Positions 1 to 4,859 of a stretch of DNA of 10,087 bases are shown one piece after another. Source of the DNA: a virus (Duplodnaviria > Heunggongvirae > Uroviricota > Caudoviricetes); IMG/VR virus record IMGVR_UViG_2737471839_000018, positions 1-10,087 of that record. One strand, written 5' to 3'. A program made the position numbers and the translations under genes. The notes beneath the pieces are model-generated. The model had not been told where the DNA came from. It saw nothing but the letters and a program-made list of their open reading frames with translations, and ran no database searches. Position 1 is the first letter of the stretch; each line of letters starts with the position of its first letter.

Positions 1-251
1 GGTCATGGCCTCCATAGTGATGGCGGGTCCTCCTTGTGGGGTGCCCTGCCACGGGGCGGGAGCATCGCGGAAAAAGGCTAGTTTTTGCATTTTTATTCGT
101 CATCACCACCAATGCAATATATTGATATGACTTGATGTTTTATTTTTCGGTGTCGATTTCGATTGTTTTTTGTTCATCACTGACGCATAACGCCCACCAG
201 CGCAACGCTGAAAGCCAGTCAGTAAACTGGCTTCGGTCATTGTGCACTACG

Positions 252-794
252 TTACTTGTCTTTATCCGGCTGAAACTTATCAGGCACATTTCCGGTAGTT
301 TCCATCAGATAATCGGACAGCATTCGCGGGATGTTTTCATCAAGTTTTGTGCATGCGTTACAGGCTCTGACAACTTCTTTTTTCAGGCCATCCAGCATGG
401 CGGGGGTCATCTGTGGGAAGCTCCTTTGCATAGTAAGCGGCAGGCTGCCCATGATTGAAGAAATCTGACTCGCCAGTTTTGAAAGCGCATATATACAAAA
501 TTCCGTACTAATCACATCGCCGCGTTCGCTCTCGTTTTTAAGCTCCTGCGCCTCCGCCTGCGCTGTCAGCAATCTGATCCTGACTCGCAAAAGCTCATCA
601 TTATCAATCTCTCCTTTGTCGTTTGTAAGCTGGTTAATTGCATTGTTAACCCTATTGTCTATCACGCTGGCAACATCATAAAACGCCTCACGGCCTTTAC
701 GCTCAACGGGAGTCACTCCCCACTTGTCGAATGCTGTAGCACTTACCCGGCAGCTTTGCGCCATGGTTTTTTTGTTCATCAGGTGCGATTTCAT
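252..794 (-). CDS. Small terminase subunit, lambda Nu1-like (TerS)
   Basis: Translation has the segment RLLTAQAEAQELKNESERGDVISTEFCIYALSKLASQISSIMGSLPLTMQRSFP...KLDENIPRMLSDYLMETTG, which matches lambda Nu1 as I recall it (RLTRAQADAQELKN...AFCTFVLSRIAGEIASILDGLPLSVQRRFP...LDELIPGLLSEYIEQSG). The N-terminus (NKKTMAQSCRVSATAFDKWGVTPV) resembles the Nu1 winged-HTH region. The ORF-track start at 797 is TTG; ATG codons are at 794 and 779, and 779 (MNKK...) aligns best with Nu1 MEVNKK. Stop TAA at 252-254. Confidence 0.85.
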   Translation of the reverse strand: MKSHLMNKKTMAQSCRVSATAFDKWGVTPVERKGREAFYDVASVIDNRVNNAINQLTNDKGEIDNDELLRVRIRLLTAQAEAQELKNESERGDVISTEFCIYALSKLASQISSIMGSLPLTMQRSFPQMTPAMLDGLKKEVVRACNACTKLDENIPRMLSDYLMETTGNVPDKFQPDKDK

Positions 795-821
795 CAATAT
801 CCCAACTTGGTCAAGGTTTCA

Positions 822-896
822 GGTTGGTGTGTTGGTGTTATCTTTCCCTTTTTATTCATGGAGATAGAGCAAACAACAAAACCACCACCACCACCC
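822..896. repeat. Candidate cosB-like repeats between cosN and the terS start: tandem GGTTGGTGT/GTTGGTGTT (822-839) and (ACC)5 tract (881-896)
   Basis: Direct repeats seen in the sequence at the position where lambda carries its R-sites and IHF site. The sequence is unlike the lambda cosB R-sites as I remember them. Function is inferred. Confidence 0.3.
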
Positions 897-927
897 TGAA
901 AAAGCTCATAAATAGCGAAAAACCGCG

Positions 928-939
928 AGGTCGCCGCCC
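928..939 (-). other. Lambda-type cohesive end site cosN (12-nt overhang sequence)
   Basis: Plus strand 928-939 reads AGGTCGCCGCCC, the lambda right-end cohesive sequence. The minus strand reads GTTACG GGGCGGCGACCT CGCGGTTTTTCGCTATTTATGA, nearly identical to the lambda left end for about 35 nt, then diverges. Orientation is cosN, then cosB, then terS, as in lambda. Confidence 0.8.
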
Positions 940-971
940 CGTAACAGGTCCATATGCCGGAAAGGACCCGC

Positions 972-997
972 AAAAAAGCCGGATTTCTCCGGCCTTT
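972..997 (-). terminator. Rho-independent terminator ending the capsid operon (hairpin also usable from the plus strand)
   Basis: Stem GCCGGA (978-983), loop TTTC, stem TCCGGC (988-993). Flanked by A6 on plus (T6 on minus) and by CTTTTCT on plus. Sits immediately after the stop of the 137-aa gene at 1000. Confidence 0.7.
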
Positions 998-999
998 TC

Positions 1000-1413
1000 T
1001 CAGATGGTTTTCAGTATGCGATCGATGTCGCCGTCATCGCCCGGGTTTCTGCCATCGTATGCCATGCCAGCTGATACGGCTTGTGGGCTGTGCATGTCCA
1101 TAAAGTTTTCAAAGGCTGCGGTAAGCTCTGGTGCAACCTTCGGGCGTTCCTGCTCTATGGTCATGTTCAGGATGTTTTTAGCCGTATCAACATCAATACA
1201 AGGCACGTTTGCCATTGCACGTAACAGCGGCTGATAGTCGTCAGATTCATGAAGCGACATAATCGCATCAGCGCGCGGCTTGTCCTGTTCTTCCAGTTTG
1301 TTAAGTTGATATATAGCTTCGTAGGTTGATAGACATCTGTCAGCCATTGCCCGCGCTTCGGCTTTAAATTTACTCGCCAGCGGTAGCGCCATGATACTTT
1401 CATTCGTTGCCAT
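1000..1413 (-). CDS. Hypothetical protein (137 aa), last gene of the capsid operon
   Basis: ATG at 1413-1411 preceded by CAGGGGGAACG (SD-like). Follows the D-like gene by 12 nt. Acidic C-terminal region. No family recognised. Confidence 0.65.
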   Translation of the reverse strand: MATNESIMALPLASKFKAEARAMADRCLSTYEAIYQLNKLEEQDKPRADAIMSLHESDDYQPLLRAMANVPCIDVDTAKNILNMTIEQERPKVAPELTAAFENFMDMHSPQAVSAGMAYDGRNPGDDGDIDRILKTI

Positions 1414-1425
1414 CGTTCCCCCTGC

Positions 1426-1761
1426 TTATCGCGCCAGCGGCTGAACGGATACACCAGAACCCGCAAAGGCGGCACATTTTTTCGCGTCGGTGTCGACGCT
1501 CTCAGGCCAGTTAACGGCGGCAATATTGAATATCCCCGTCTTGTAACACTGTGCTGATTTCTGCGTTGACGTGTCCACGGGATACGCCGTCAGATAAACA
1601 GCCTTGCCAGATTCCTGACCATCCCACGGCTTAAATTCGCCATTGTCCGCCAGCATCAGCGGGGTAAATTCCTGAATAACGCCAGCATCAGCGGCAAAAT
1701 GTACCAGCGTCGTGGCGACCTGCTGACTGCCTGCAAATAACTCAATGTATGGAGTGTCCAT
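1426..1761 (-). CDS. Head decoration protein, lambda gpD-like
   Basis: 111 aa. Motifs TPLMLA, WDG, YKTGIF, WPESVDTDAKKCAAFAGSGVSV parallel lambda gpD ([37 protein letters not shown]) as recalled. ATG at 1761 with a GGGGGA SD. Confidence 0.85.
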   Translation of the reverse strand: MDTPYIELFAGSQQVATTLVHFAADAGVIQEFTPLMLADNGEFKPWDGQESGKAVYLTAYPVDTSTQKSAQCYKTGIFNIAAVNWPESVDTDAKKCAAFAGSGVSVQPLAR

Positions 1762-1772
1762 AGAATCCCCCG

Positions 1773-2828
1773 TTAACCAATTTTGACGGTAACAAATTTG
1801 CGAATATCTGCCGGAACAGGCTGCGGTGCGCTGTGCGTCTGCACGTACTCAATCGCCGGATCGCCGTCCTCAATCCAGTTTTTCGGGTAAAACATGTTTT
1901 GCGTTGCGCCCGTTCTGACCGCTTCCTGATCCATAATCGCACCATAGGCCACCAGCCCTTTATTGTTGGTGTTGCCCAGGACCAGCAAATCAGGCTCAAG
2001 GAAATATTTTTCGGTGCCGTCGCTGTCAGTGTATTTGCCGGAATAGACGATAAGGGCAATATCGCCCAGATATCCTTTAAAGCTCACCACTTCGCCCAGG
2101 TTTTTACAGGCCAGCTCTGCGGCGGACTCTGAACCACGGGAAAGATCGTACAGTTCGCGGAATTTTTTAAAGCTGCGTAATGTTCGCCATACCTCAGCGC
2201 CCATGATCATGACGTTGGCGGGGCAACCTGCTTGATCCGCATAAAGCTCGATATCATAAATTGGATCGTGGGTTTCTTTGTCCTGCTCGGACCATTTACG
2301 GCCTTTGGCCTGCTCTATGATGTTTTTTTCCGGTATCTTCCAGTCGATTTCATAGCGTTCTATGCCCTCGCCCTCAATGATGTTTTTTCCGGTCGTTACC
2401 GCATTCACCGCCAGCCATTCCACGCGCGCTTTAATCGCGTTTATCTGGCGGCGCATGTTGCCAGTAATCAGGCGCATACGGCGATAGGTTGGGTCATTAA
2501 GCTGTGCCGGATCTTCTGCAGCCATACGCATGATGGTTTTCGTTGGATCGATTTCGTGCTTCGGCTTCATGTATCCAGGTTTAATCGTGCTGGTTTCGTA
2601 CCCTTTATCGCGCTGGACCTGACTACCCACCATAGGCGAACAAAACGCCGACATCGTAACCTCTTCAATGTCCAGGGTGTCCAGCATGATGTTTTGGGTG
2701 TTGAATGTCGCCACGTTCGGGAAAAACAGCGTGGTAAACAGCGGACTGAATTTAAATTCCGCAATATCCCCGCGATTCAGGTACGCGAAAAGCTGGTTAG
2801 TGTTAAGTGCCGTTGCTTTGCCTGCCAT
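1773..2828 (-). CDS. Major capsid protein, lambda gpE family
   Basis: 351 aa. Shares many blocks with lambda gpE: FKFSPLF..LFF, PGYMKPKHEIDP, DPAQLNDPTYRRMR, RGSESAAELACKNLGEVVSFKGYLGDIALIVYSG, VLGNTNNKGL.AYG, YPKNWIEDGDPA. ATG at 2828 with SD GGAGGTG. TAATG overlap with the upstream gene. Confidence 0.93.
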   Translation of the reverse strand: MAGKATALNTNQLFAYLNRGDIAEFKFSPLFTTLFFPNVATFNTQNIMLDTLDIEEVTMSAFCSPMVGSQVQRDKGYETSTIKPGYMKPKHEIDPTKTIMRMAAEDPAQLNDPTYRRMRLITGNMRRQINAIKARVEWLAVNAVTTGKNIIEGEGIERYEIDWKIPEKNIIEQAKGRKWSEQDKETHDPIYDIELYADQAGCPANVMIMGAEVWRTLRSFKKFRELYDLSRGSESAAELACKNLGEVVSFKGYLGDIALIVYSGKYTDSDGTEKYFLEPDLLVLGNTNNKGLVAYGAIMDQEAVRTGATQNMFYPKNWIEDGDPAIEYVQTHSAPQPVPADIRKFVTVKIG

Positions 2829-3034
2829 TATTCACCTCCATGCGTCTGATTCATGCCCAGCGCCGCGCGTAAATAGGCGCGGACCTGCCAGCCTGTTGAC
2901 GGCTCAACCATTGCCAGCGGATCAAGTCCTGCCTCAATGCCTGCTTTTACGTTCTGCTGGTGGCGTTCCTTGAGCGCCTTCACGATGTCGGGGCTTATGT
3001 ACACCGAAACACCGCCTTTTTTCTCTTCAGCCAT
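2828..3034 (-). CDS. Hypothetical small protein (68 aa), first gene of the capsid operon
   Basis: ATG at 3034 with SD AGAGGAA upstream. Its stop TAA overlaps the ATG of the capsid gene (translational coupling). No family recognised. Confidence 0.6.
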   Translation of the reverse strand: MAEEKKGGVSVYISPDIVKALKERHQQNVKAGIEAGLDPLAMVEPSTGWQVRAYLRAALGMNQTHGGE

Positions 3035-3062
3035 AGTAAGAAATTCCTCTTCGACTTAAAAA

Positions 3063-3130
3063 ATCATAACTGGATGTTCATCCAGTTATGATTATAATCA
3101 TGATTGCATTTTGTGCAATGGTATTGAGTT
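3063..3130 (-). promoter_or_regulatory. Putative capsid-operon promoter/operator: 30-bp perfect palindrome plus palindromic ATTATAAT (-10-like) and a second dyad ATTGCA-N5-TGCAAT
   Basis: ATCATAACTGGATG-TT-CATCCAGTTATGAT at 3063-3092 (14-bp arms). ATTATAAT at 3091-3098 reads as TATAAT on either strand. ATTGCATTTTGTGCAAT at 3104-3120. All lie 30-100 bp upstream of the operon ATG at 3034. The -35 is weak. Confidence 0.45.
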
Positions 3131-3199
3131 GTGTTGCAAATTATGAAATTATTATCCCAATCATGTGTGTCAGTGCACCAAAAAGCCTCATATGCAAAA

Positions 3200-3237
3200 G
3201 CCCGATAAGAACCCTCTGACCTTATCGGGCTTTTTTT
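3200..3237 (+). terminator. Rho-independent terminator oriented for plus-strand transcription
   Basis: GCCCGATAAG (3200-3209), 11-nt loop, CTTATCGGGC (3221-3230), followed by T7 (3231-3237). Confidence 0.55.
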
Positions 3238-3242
3238 GGGGC

Positions 3243-3265
3243 AAAAAAGCCGGATTGCTCCGGCT
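3243..3265 (-). terminator. Rho-independent terminator for the 74-aa gene
   Basis: AGCCGGA-TTGC-TCCGGCT hairpin (3248-3265) preceded on plus by A6, which is T6 after the stem on minus. Same core as the hairpins at 978-993 and 3611-3628. Confidence 0.65.
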
Positions 3266-3284
3266 ATGTGTGCTGTGTGCTGGC

Positions 3285-3509
3285 TCAGTCTCTGATCTCT
3301 TTCAGAAATTCTATCAATGCATCTATCTGTTCAGGATTTACCGCCAGCATTTCACCGGATAGCGCACATCTGACAAATCCATGCCGATCCTTTTCAATCA
3401 ACGCGCCCGTTTCCAGGAATGCGCGGTAATCAGTGATGTTCATCGTCTCCATGTTGTCAGCATGGTATTTATCACGCTGTTTTAATATCTCATCAAATTT
3501 CATCGGCAT
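3285..3509 (-). CDS. Hypothetical small protein (74 aa)
   Basis: Chosen start is ATG at 3509 (MPMKFDEIL...) with strong SD CAGAGGAAAAAACA. The longer ORF-track start at 3587 has no SD and abuts the upstream terminator. Monocistronic between two terminators. Confidence 0.6.
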   Translation of the reverse strand: MPMKFDEILKQRDKYHADNMETMNITDYRAFLETGALIEKDRHGFVRCALSGEMLAVNPEQIDALIEFLKEIRD

Positions 3510-3604
3510 TGTTTTTTCCTCTGTTGTGTCTGTTTGTTTCAGATAGTAACTATGCCGGACCGTGACGAAAACCCGGTAATGCGCCATACCGTTTCAACTG
3601 GTGC

Positions 3605-3628
3605 AAAAAAAGCCGGATTTCTCCGGCT
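3605..3628 (-). terminator. Rho-independent terminator for the PerC-like gene
   Basis: A7 (plus 3605-3611), then AGCCGGA-TTTC-TCCGGCT (3611-3628). On the minus strand the stem is followed by T7. Confidence 0.7.
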
Positions 3629-3634
3629 GTGTGA

Positions 3635-3907
3635 TTAGCTGTACTGGTAATTGCGCCATATATCATCACCAGCACCATCCATACCCATTTCGGCATAAGT
3701 GCGATCGACTGCCTTTTTCAGGTCTCCGAAATTATCCGGCGGCTCCGGTGCCCTCTGTGCCTTCCTTGAACATTCCAGCCGTCGCATCGTGATGTGATGC
3801 CGTTCCTTGTCTGTCTCCACCAGCTGCATGACTTCACCCCATCGCGCCGCCGCCCTCCGGTAAAAGCCTTTCGCCTCCAGTTCCTCCGCTATGCGGTCAT
3901 GTACCAT
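3635..3907 (-). CDS. PerC-family-like transcriptional regulator (90 aa)
   Basis: N-terminal AEELEAKGFYRRAAARWGEVMQ resembles the PerC family signature as I recall it (moderate certainty). ATG at 3907. The SD is a G10 homopolymer. Confidence 0.6.
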   Translation of the reverse strand: MVHDRIAEELEAKGFYRRAAARWGEVMQLVETDKERHHITMRRLECSRKAQRAPEPPDNFGDLKKAVDRTYAEMGMDGAGDDIWRNYQYS

Positions 3908-3909
3908 CG

Positions 3910-3919
3910 CCCCCCCCCC
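3910..3919. repeat. Homopolymeric tract C10 (G10 on the coding strand) between the ssb stop and the PerC-like start
   Basis: Counted directly: C at 3910-3919. Minus strand reads TGA-GGGGGGGGGG-CG-ATG. Confidence 0.9.
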
Positions 3920-4330
3920 TCAGAACGGAATATCATCACCGTAAGGGTCATCGCCTCCAGCTGGTGGCTGATTACCCTGTGTGCTTGTGGTCTTGCGTCG
4001 GCTCCCGCCAGGACGGGCAGCACTGGCACTGATTACACTGTCTGCGATAACCTGATAACCCTGCCGCGTTTCCCCGTTCTGTCCGGTCCACTGGCTAACC
4101 TGTATCGTGCCGGATACGCTGGCAACATCGCCTTTTTGATGTTTAGCCAGGTAGTCGGCCTGCTTGCCAAATGCGATGACCGACAGCCATAACGTCGCCT
4201 GTCCGTCCTGTGCCTGGCTGCATGGCAGCGATACCGCCATACGAGCCAGCGTCATTGGTGTGCCCTTGCTGGTCTGTTTTACCTGCGGGTCGTCCACCAG
4301 CCGCCCGTAAGCGGCTATCTGTGCTGTCAT
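3920..4330 (-). CDS. ssb: Single-stranded DNA-binding protein (SSB)
   Basis: 136 aa. OB-fold-like blocks (GRLVDDPQ, WLSVIAFGKQA, QKGD, WTGQNGETR), a Gly/Pro/Gln-rich linker, and a C-terminal acidic tail ending DDIPF. ATGA overlap with the upstream gene. Confidence 0.85.
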   Translation of the reverse strand: MTAQIAAYGRLVDDPQVKQTSKGTPMTLARMAVSLPCSQAQDGQATLWLSVIAFGKQADYLAKHQKGDVASVSGTIQVSQWTGQNGETRQGYQVIADSVISASAARPGGSRRKTTSTQGNQPPAGGDDPYGDDIPF

Positions 4331-4572
4331 GATTCCACCTCTCCGGTTTTAACGTTGATGGTTGTTACCTGTTCCGCTTCGGCAATCTCCCGTTCTGTCA
4401 GCGTGGCAAAGTTTGCCGCCGTCGTGGTCATGAATGCGCTTATCAGTTCGGGATGTGCTTTCGCGTATCCTTCCCCGGCGTTGCGGTCGATGATTTTTAT
4501 CGCCACCCTCAGCCAGTGTTCTGTCAAATCAAGGGCGTGAGATTGTGGTTTTTTGGCGTGCTTCGTTGTCAC
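4327..4572 (-). CDS. Hypothetical protein (81 aa), coupled to ssb
   Basis: Only an in-frame GTG start at 4572, with GAGGT about 8 nt upstream. Stop overlaps the ssb ATG. Lies directly downstream of the iteron region. Confidence 0.5.
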   Translation of the reverse strand: MTTKHAKKPQSHALDLTEHWLRVAIKIIDRNAGEGYAKAHPELISAFMTTTAANFATLTEREIAEAEQVTTINVKTGEVES

Positions 4573-4620
4573 AGGCTTTACCTCACAGCAATAAAATAAA
4601 ATTTTTGCATTTCAACCCTT

Positions 4621-4846
4621 CACCTGTTCACCTTTTGCAATTTTCCCTTTTTATTCATAATGTTAAGGGGTGAACAGTTTCACAAAAACTATTCACCAAC
4701 TGTTCACCACTGTTCACCCTTAAAGCTCAATAAAGAATCAAAAAGGTGAACAGTGAATAGTTTGGTGAACAGTTCATAAATAACTGCTCACCCTATAATA
4801 TACTGATATAAAAGACATTTATTGCAGGGTGAACAGTGGTGAACAG
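4621..4846. repeat. Iteron cluster / putative origin of replication (TGTTCACC octamers in both orientations in an AT-rich context)
   Basis: Perfect TGTTCACC at 4625-4632, 4701-4708, 4711-4718. Perfect reverse GGTGAACA at 4669-4676, 4745-4752, 4764-4771, 4828-4835, 4838-4845. Degenerate copies near 4692, 4754 and 4785. To my recollection this octamer is the P4 alpha-binding type I iteron of ori/crr. Confidence 0.75.
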
Positions 4847-4859
4847 TTATTCCATAAGT

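Follow-up and report, generated by a model that had tools for sequence, protein, structure and literature searches.

The 10,087-nt stretch of DNA analysed here (the window; positions 1 to 10,087 of IMG/VR record IMGVR_UViG_2737471839_000018) is a Gram-negative phage-inducible chromosomal island (PICI) of the EcCICFT073 family, i.e., an Escherichia coli phage satellite, in which a cos packaging site adjoins a gene for a Nu1-family small terminase (TerS). Sequence comparisons suggest that this cos site and its TerS probably form a cognate pair, through which the island redirects packaging by replacing the helper TerS with its own. A preliminary description, made from the sequence alone, had proposed that the large terminase (TerL) of a helper phage cuts a conserved cosN while the satellite TerS selects its own cosB. 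This proposal fits four independent comparative results, and the comparative evidence, as far as sequence can speak to it, supports redirection.

According to this reading, a lambda-like helper would induce the island, which would then replicate into concatemers. We infer that the island TerS would bind three cosB sites (870-895, 821-839 and 795-806) through an N15-type winged helix-turn-helix (wHTH) domain, the R3-like, inverted R2-like and R1-like layout of these sites mimicking the lambda order R3-R2-R1, and that its C-terminal half would recruit the helper TerL. The latter would nick cosN at 928-939, terminate at cosQ at 963-969 and pump the island DNA into capsids. Specificity would be switched because the helper TerS could not read the island cosB and the island TerS could not read the helper cosB. 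Meanwhile, the island TerS would probably compete with the helper TerS for TerL, leading to interference with the helper. The elements concerned are the following (window coordinates).

963-969, minus strand: cosQ heptamer GGGTCCT, placed by alignment and direct count.
923-945, minus strand: cosN core, a 23-mer with the cohesive end GGGCGGCGACCT at 928-939, placed by identity to lambda.
895-927, minus strand: right flank of cosN, cos bp 13-45, CGCGGTTTTTCGCTATTTATGAGCTTTTTCAGG, placed by alignment with lambda.
870-895, minus strand: R3-like proximal site GGTGGTGGTGGTGGTTTTGTTGTTTG, cos bp 45-70, with invariant GGTGG and TTGTT columns in eight islands.
840-869, minus strand: A+T-rich spacer (GC 0.33-0.38) with a conserved CTATCTnnATGAATAAAA block, at the position of lambda I1.
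821-839, plus strand: R2-like distal site, inverted relative to the proximal site and reading AACACCAACACACCAACC in cos orientation.
795-806, minus strand: R1-like third site GTTGGGATATTG, with two mismatches, abutting the terS start codon.
795-974, minus strand: the cos region as a whole.
252-794, minus strand: terS, the gene for the Nu1-family small terminase of 180 amino acids.
565-893, minus strand: apparently exchangeable specificity cassette, made up of cosB and TerS codons 1-77 and delimited by blastn breakpoints against the related island L004.

The cutting half of the cos region is lambda-like. On the minus strand, the sequence at 928-939 (GGGCGGCGACCT) is identical to the lambda left cohesive end at 12 of 12 positions, and the 23-mer GTTACGGGGCGGCGACCTCGCGG at 923-945 is an exact lambda match that occurs once in the window and in none of 200 shuffled sequences. 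The preliminary description had reported a lambda-identical cosN with about 20 nt of flanking sequence; the match proved to be longer, the lambda cos homology spanning -34 to +45 (window 974-895), with 40 of 45 positions identical over cos bp 1-45. This stretch scores E=1e-17 against the phage collection. Alignment with lambdoid cos regions also places the cosQ heptamer GGGTCCT at 963-969, 30 nt from the nick, which is the spacing found in lambda (lambda 48473-48479). The heptamer is present in lambda and N15 as well, and its core GGTCCT is invariant in 8 of 8 aligned islands. Homology to both lambda and EcCICFT073 stops at the right flank of cosN, the breakpoint with EcCICFT073 lying at window position 898. 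Of 5426 complete E. coli genomes, 4665 contain the cosN/cosQ half (894-975) but only 965 the whole site (795-975). A second cos resembling cos2 of EcCICFT073 was not found in the window. Among 43 IMG/VR contigs with the cosB 20-mer, whose ends are not virion termini, no metagenome-derived contig that was checked ends at cosN.

Past cos bp ~45, no similarity to lambda was detected; no CGTTTCC-type R site is present, and a counterpart of lambda R3 (bp 50-65) is absent. The features by which the lambda cosB is recognised, i.e., R sites of the form CGTTTCC.TTCT and the integration host factor (IHF) site I1, were not found in 795-895. It had been suggested that unrelated repeats stand in place of the R sites. 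The repeats are real and no lambda R site accompanies them, but they are related to R3 of phage N15. The proximal site (870-895) consists of a (GGT)5 run followed by TTTTGTTGTTTG, and within it lies the 9-mer TTGTTGTTT, which it has in common with N15 R3; this is the single R site of N15 (bp 48-60, GAGGTTGTTGTTT) and was mapped by linker scanning (PMC9026076). The 9-mer occupies cos bp 61-69 here versus 52-60 in N15, i.e., 9 bp farther from cosN. The inverted partner stretch is found at 817-839, where the repeat 817-829/889-901 is 92% complementary over 13 nt. The R2-like site itself shows one mismatch to GTTGGTGTATTG, and the block CAATACACC[AC]AC is near-invariant across the aligned islands. 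The R1-like site shares its orientation with the proximal site, and the R-like sites thus follow the order forward, reverse, forward, with the first two ~53 bp apart versus ~51 bp between lambda R3 and R2. For the O157 island, complementarity between the R2-like and R1-like 11-mers reaches 100%, and in the window the best matches to the 12-mer R-site motif cluster in 795-842. The R1-like site also overlaps the likely ribosome-binding site of terS, and one might speculate that TerS binding could autoregulate the gene.

The gene adjoining cos had been described as Nu1-like, and its full-length product bears this out: the open reading frame (ORF) at 252-794 matches Pfam Phage_Nu1 (PF07471) with 76 bits against a cutoff of 30 and PHROG 57 at 8e-50 over residues 1-173, and it is 34% identical to lambda Nu1 (E=2e-32). 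In a search of the phage collection, its closest phage relative is N15 gp1. The preliminary description had further contrasted a divergent N-terminal DNA-binding domain with a conserved C-terminal region. The contrast is weak, with 18 of 47 residues of the former and 44 of 98 residues of the C-terminal half identical to lambda Nu1, and "conserved" overstates the latter figure. Nor is the N-terminal domain an orphan, being of the N15 gp1 type with identity at 29 of 51 positions (57%). Residues 1 to ~55 appear to form an N15-type wHTH domain, and residues ~78-180 an island-type oligomerisation and putative TerL-binding half, in which the C-terminal motif LDENIPRMLSDYL resembles LDELIPGLLSEYI of lambda and N15. 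A DNA-binding domain of the N15 type is consistent with the N15 R3 core TTGTTGTTT in the proximal cosB element. The AlphaFold2 (AF2) model is only moderately good, with a confidence score (pLDDT) of 70.6 overall and 73-82 over residues 1-50, and its N-terminal order of strand, helix, helix, beta-hairpin and helix fits a wHTH fold. A phmmer search of PDB sequences with TerS returned spurious matches and none to the Nu1 DNA-binding domain, which N15 gp1 does match at 4e-4. Purifying selection acts on all segments of TerS, dN/dS being 0.14-0.23 across segments and 0.16-0.32 for residues 141-180, and the many close homologues recovered are intact at 180 amino acids. TerL, i.e., a homologue of lambda gpA, was not found in the window or in those relatives whose island ends are visible.

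The comparison of related islands shows that cosB varies together with the DNA-binding domain of TerS. Across five genera and TerS identities of 50-96%, every island with an N15-type domain retains the blocks GGTGG..TGTTGTT and CAATACACC[AC]AC. Eight of them, from E. coli, Kosakonia, Superficieibacter, Scandinavium and metagenomes, were aligned, and all eight contain three blocks: proximal GGTGG..TGTTGTT, central TAT..ATGA, and distal CAATACACC[AC]AC, which inverts the proximal one. In sister islands that share the backbone of the window, the TerS (P0101) has a DNA-binding domain of the phage 21 type, its C-terminal half is identical to that of the window at 100 of 111 positions, and cosB carries three 21-type R sites, namely CATGTCAGTTCT, an inverted copy and CATGTCGTAACT. 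Between the window and the 21-type island L004, a non-homologous block at ~565-893 is bounded by sequences that are 91-95% identical on both sides, as judged from blastn breakpoints. The two island types do not differ in this way in cosN and the TerS C-terminal half, which stay constant between N15-type and 21-type islands.

Meanwhile, cosN varies together with the helper. On one Kosakonia contig, a satellite located in the E gene of a prophage (L018) and the terminase region of its helper (L047) have in common the unusual cohesive end GGGCGGCAGACT and its left flank. In the helper, the R sites and TerS are of the lambda type and TerL comes after TerS; in the satellite, cosB and the DNA-binding domain are of the N15 type and TerL is absent. 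Among the Nu1-family loci from GTDB species-representative genomes, recovered with an alignment query (a single TerS protein as query matched none), the satellite-type TerS never adjoins TerL. The phage-type TerS is followed by a gpA homologue where the flanking DNA suffices, apart from a few loci (e.g., L055 and L058). No prophage TerS with an island-type C-terminal half was found beside TerL, as 793 of 793 matching E. coli genomes were annotated with TerS alone. Short or low-coverage contigs that are 99-100% identical to lambda Nu1 and gpA (L029-L037, L045, L051, L052, L056, L059, L061, L066 and L068) occur in assemblies of Kitasatospora, Paenibacillus, Oceanobacillus, Bradyrhizobium, Enterococcus and other unrelated bacteria; these almost certainly reflect contamination of libraries with lambda DNA.

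The islands might represent a third route to specificity in cos satellites, a view for and against which we find the balance about even: true TerS replacement through an exchangeable cassette (cosB plus wHTH domain, of N15 or 21 type, the Rpp module being the alternative found at this locus), joined to a C-terminal domain that is specific to the satellites and captures the helper TerL. If so, one backbone could, through cassette swapping, escape competition with any helper that it encounters, and TerS would also act against the helper by titrating TerL.

Several observations weigh against redirection by TerS replacement. The island of strain IHE3034 was barely transferred by resident prophages, with <1 to 40 transductants (PMC6092414). 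Conservation and repeat structure are all that defines the R-like sites; across the window, matches to the 12-mer R-site motif show no enrichment (14 versus 9.6 expected), and the IHF consensus WATCAANNNNTTR was not found in 795-895, which includes the spacer, with up to one mismatch allowed. A Foldseek search with the AF2 model did not significantly recover the Nu1 DNA-binding domain, the best match being the MerR-type GlnR at E=0.26; the wHTH assignment is therefore based on the predicted secondary structure and on homology to two proteins, N15 gp1 and lambda Nu1. Moreover, the TerS C-terminal half is ~45% identical to that of lambda or N15, with no phage in the collection above 60%, so that compatibility with any given TerL is conjecture. 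The TerS proteins of lambda and 21, whose divergence is comparable, are not known to substitute for each other in TerL binding.

Among the other explanations, the most serious, though we consider it rather unlikely, is an Rpp-like mode of action. Here the island TerS would co-assemble with the helper TerS as a heterodimer or mixed oligomer, the complex would read the island cosB, and the helper TerS would supply or share the TerL contact. Rpp acts through binding to the helper TerS (PMC6739421), and terS occupies the exact position of rppA in EcCICFT073, on the same backbone and with the same cosQ/cosN upstream. Mixed TerS oligomers are plausible because the central region (AQAEAQELKN, FC.Y.LS..A..ISSI) is the part of the protein most conserved with phage TerS, and the extreme C-terminus has no close match in known phages. 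However, TerS shows no similarity to RppA (BLASTP, E<=100) or to the Rpp chains in PDB. Rpp proteins have 135-153 amino acids and no TerL-binding tail (PMC9026076), whereas the TerS of the window retains a full-length C-terminal domain that is under purifying selection and ends in a lambda-like terminal motif. In some satellites, such as L019, the C-terminal half is identical to that of lambda at 71 of 98 positions, which points to direct TerL binding.

It is improbable, in our estimation, that cos and terS serve interference only or are decaying, either as relics of a captured lambdoid late region or with TerS mainly poisoning the packaging of the helper, which it would do by binding helper DNA or sequestering TerL, and not promoting that of the island. 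PICIs and helper-embedded satellites do capture helper late genes (bioRxiv 10.1101/2022.07.18.500453), the IHE3034 island is transferred poorly (PMC6092414), and no helper is known. However, terS is intact at 180 amino acids in homologues with dN/dS of ~0.15-0.2, the cosQ, cosN and cosB blocks are conserved across genera, and cosB and the DNA-binding domain co-vary tightly, as do cosN and the helper, which is not expected of a relic or a pure decoy. Self-sufficient packaging by a complete terminase of its own, as in a capsid-forming PICI, with TerL lying outside the window, would be a very remote prospect, even though the island encodes a gpE-like capsid protein, a gpD-like decoration protein and possibly a scaffold-like protein, and the window stops 251 bp after terS. 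In relatives seen as whole islands (PKF11, O157, IHE3034 and L004), terS is followed by a gene for ~94 amino acids and then by chromosomal genes, with no TerL, portal or protease. Assignment to the capsid-forming PICIs was rejected on the absence of these three proteins. Replacement of the helper TerS by that of the island is the reading that we prefer.

All the recognisable genes of the window lie on the minus strand, according to ORF and profile scans. Apart from terS and cos, the following features were identified.

8849-10087, minus strand: integrase.
8223-8561, minus strand: AlpA-like regulator.
4860-6692, minus strand: D5/DUF5906 primase.
3920-4330, minus strand: single-stranded DNA-binding protein (SSB).
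3635-3907, minus strand: PerC.
2828-3034, minus strand: ORF of 68 amino acids.
1773-2828, minus strand: lambda gpE-like major capsid protein.
1426-1761, minus strand: gpD-like decoration protein.
1000-1413, minus strand: ORF of 137 amino acids.
978-993, no strand assigned: G+C hairpin GCCGGA-TTTC-TCCGGC, with T runs on both strands and TTTTTTG following on the minus strand.

The content is that of a PICI: an integrase, alpA and a primase/replication module within ~10 kb, with no lysis or tail genes. Of 5426 complete E. coli genomes, 491 contain close relatives in which 80% or more of window positions 1-3100 is covered. Those that are fully visible span ~11 kb, have chromosomal genes at both bounds and end with terS and one gene for ~94 amino acids; in the window, terS is followed by the last 251 bp. 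The integrase (8849-10087) is 96.6% identical to L016:10497-11735, an island beside yljB/cspD-clpS in E. coli STEC383, and the IHE3034 island likewise abuts clpS; from these two observations, the island of the window is probably at the clpS site. For the capsid/terS module, in contrast, the nearest islands are those at rcnR-thiM and phoQ; the backbone is mosaic.

The hairpin at 978-993 sits between the 137-amino-acid ORF and cosQ, is kept in the EcCICFT073 and IHE3034 islands and appears terminator-like. If it terminates transcription, terS would need read-through or its own promoter; a promoter scan of 795-977, from the hairpin to the terS start codon, returned no promoter-like site. The 137-amino-acid ORF (1000-1413) matches PHROG 1999 at 5e-63; a weaker match (2e-8) is to phrog_53, a family of head maturation proteases, at the C-terminal end of the profile (positions 493-567 of 583), which presumably corresponds to about where the lambda Nu3 scaffold is encoded. 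Its product may be a scaffold-like protein and, alongside the gpE- and gpD-like genes, hints at capsid remodelling. The same ORF is labelled "head-tail connector" in one RefSeq genome.

Some further observations concern the remainder of the window. Downstream of terS, the intergenic segment 115-127 (minus strand) carries a perfect IHF consensus, TATCAATATATTG, the only zero-mismatch IHF match of the window in a scan at up to one mismatch, which could belong to an attachment (att) or origin (ori) region. The zone between alpA and the primase is filled by an ORF of 306 amino acids with odd composition (7293-8213, minus strand), where relatives have short Icd-like, DUF4222 and hypothetical genes instead; it is probably spurious. 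Immunity RNAs of the C4/isrK type were sought in this zone, and an Rfam scan of the window gave zero matches.

TerS-encoding PICIs are already catalogued as a class, to which the element of the window belongs. A 2018 survey (PMC6092414) records that the islands of strains IHE3034 and 18098 "encode TerS" and that their transfer was poor; between the IHE3034 island and the window, cosB is the same and TerS is 84% identical. In SatelliteFinder (PMC10085698), the small terminase counts among the core markers of PICIs and is called "responsible for redirecting the packaging". Rpp is the sole packaging mechanism worked out for E. coli cos PICIs, and our literature search found no paper that characterises the Nu1-type TerS of these islands, their cos/cosB sites, the N15-type domain or cassette exchange. 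The most useful new details are the modular cassette of cosB and DNA-binding domain and the match of cosN between helper and satellite. The islands are common: among complete E. coli genomes, ~15% carry the TerS C-terminal half and ~18% the whole cos region, including O157:H7 and extraintestinal pathogenic strains. If the reading preferred here is true, TerS-type islands would amount to a naturally occurring counterpart of the lambda/21 specificity hybrids and would show satellites keeping the cutting site of the helper nuclease while altering the address label. They would also offer orthogonal cosB/TerS pairs for engineering delivery vehicles based on PICIs or cosmids.

The packaging logic combines two known strategies, a TerS of the type used by Staphylococcus aureus pathogenicity islands (SaPIs) and a cosB change of the Rpp type. 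Among the closest known systems is EcCICFT073, the model E. coli PICI, with its cos1 and RppA (Fillol-Salom 2018/2019, PMC6092414, PMC6739421; Murialdo & Feiss 2022, PMC9026076). It shares with the window the order PerC, 68-amino-acid ORF, gpE-like, gpD-like, 137-amino-acid ORF, hairpin, cosQ, cosN and specificity gene, with DNA 94% identical up to cos bp 42 (window 898), and it likewise combines a lambda-like cosQ/cosN with a non-helper cosB and places the specificity gene just downstream of cosB. In EcCICFT073, however, this gene encodes the 144-amino-acid RppA, which has no detectable similarity to the 180-amino-acid Nu1-family TerS found here; cosB differs and is the shorter one there, with 101 bp to the start codon versus 145 bp here, and a single R3 has been proposed there versus three sites here. 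By binding the helper TerS, Rpp directs it to the cosB of the island; Rpp is considered to lack a TerL-binding domain (PMC6739421, PMC9026076). The window has the helper-like cosQ/cosN and non-helper cosB of Rpp-type islands, but no Rpp homologue. Two observations on EcCICFT073 may be added. Where the window has GGTGGTGGTGGTGG at 880-895, cos1 of EcCICFT073 (L012:2580-2600) contains ACACCACCACCAC at a similar distance from cosN; a single trinucleotide repeat lies on opposite strands in the two islands, (ACC)n versus (GGT)n, although RppA and TerS are unrelated. Downstream of rppA, L012:3276-3340 is an inverted match to the cosQ-cosN of the window (86% over 66 nt) and presumably represents the published cos2.

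Phage N15 shares the N15-type DNA-binding domain (57% over ~51 residues), the R3 core TTGTTGTTT and a lambda-like cosN with the island. In N15, however, gp1 is followed by its own TerL, the C-terminal half is identical to that of lambda at 77 of 98 positions, and there is one R site with the start codon at bp 89, to which the island adds inverted and direct copies. The same arrangement of three R sites, forward, reverse, forward, with ~50 bp between the first two, is found in the lambda/phage 21 pairs studied as hybrids in the Feiss laboratory, where specificity resides in the N-terminal wHTH domain and TerL binding in the C-terminus; the natural island recombinants swap cosB and this domain as a unit. 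The island differs in the sequence of its R sites, in having no IHF consensus between them and in the absence of TerL, since a lambda-type cos is followed by terS and terL and here terS is present without a gpA homologue.

Satellites embedded in helper prophages (L013, L014 and L018, in the prophage E gene) have the same type of TerS and cosB, but the island of the window has instead a PICI-type chromosomal integrase. The helper-embedded satellite 11capE is said to lack terS (Tommasini, Mageeney & Williams, bioRxiv 10.1101/2022.07.18.500453). In L014 (9139-10847), terS is followed by HEPN (RiboL-PSP) and GmrSD-like genes, likely anti-phage defence cargo at the satellite end. Finally, the TerS(S) of pac-type SaPIs (Ubeda 2007, cited in PMC6739421) is likewise a satellite-encoded homologue of the helper TerS that directs the helper machinery to satellite DNA, with no large terminase encoded by the satellite. 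Packaging in SaPIs is of the headful (pac) type, their TerS belongs to an unrelated family, and they have a separate inhibitor, Ppi, a gene for which was not recognised among the ORFs scanned in the window. In contrast, the island appears to be of the cos type, with a cutting site shared with the helper and specificity confined to cosB.

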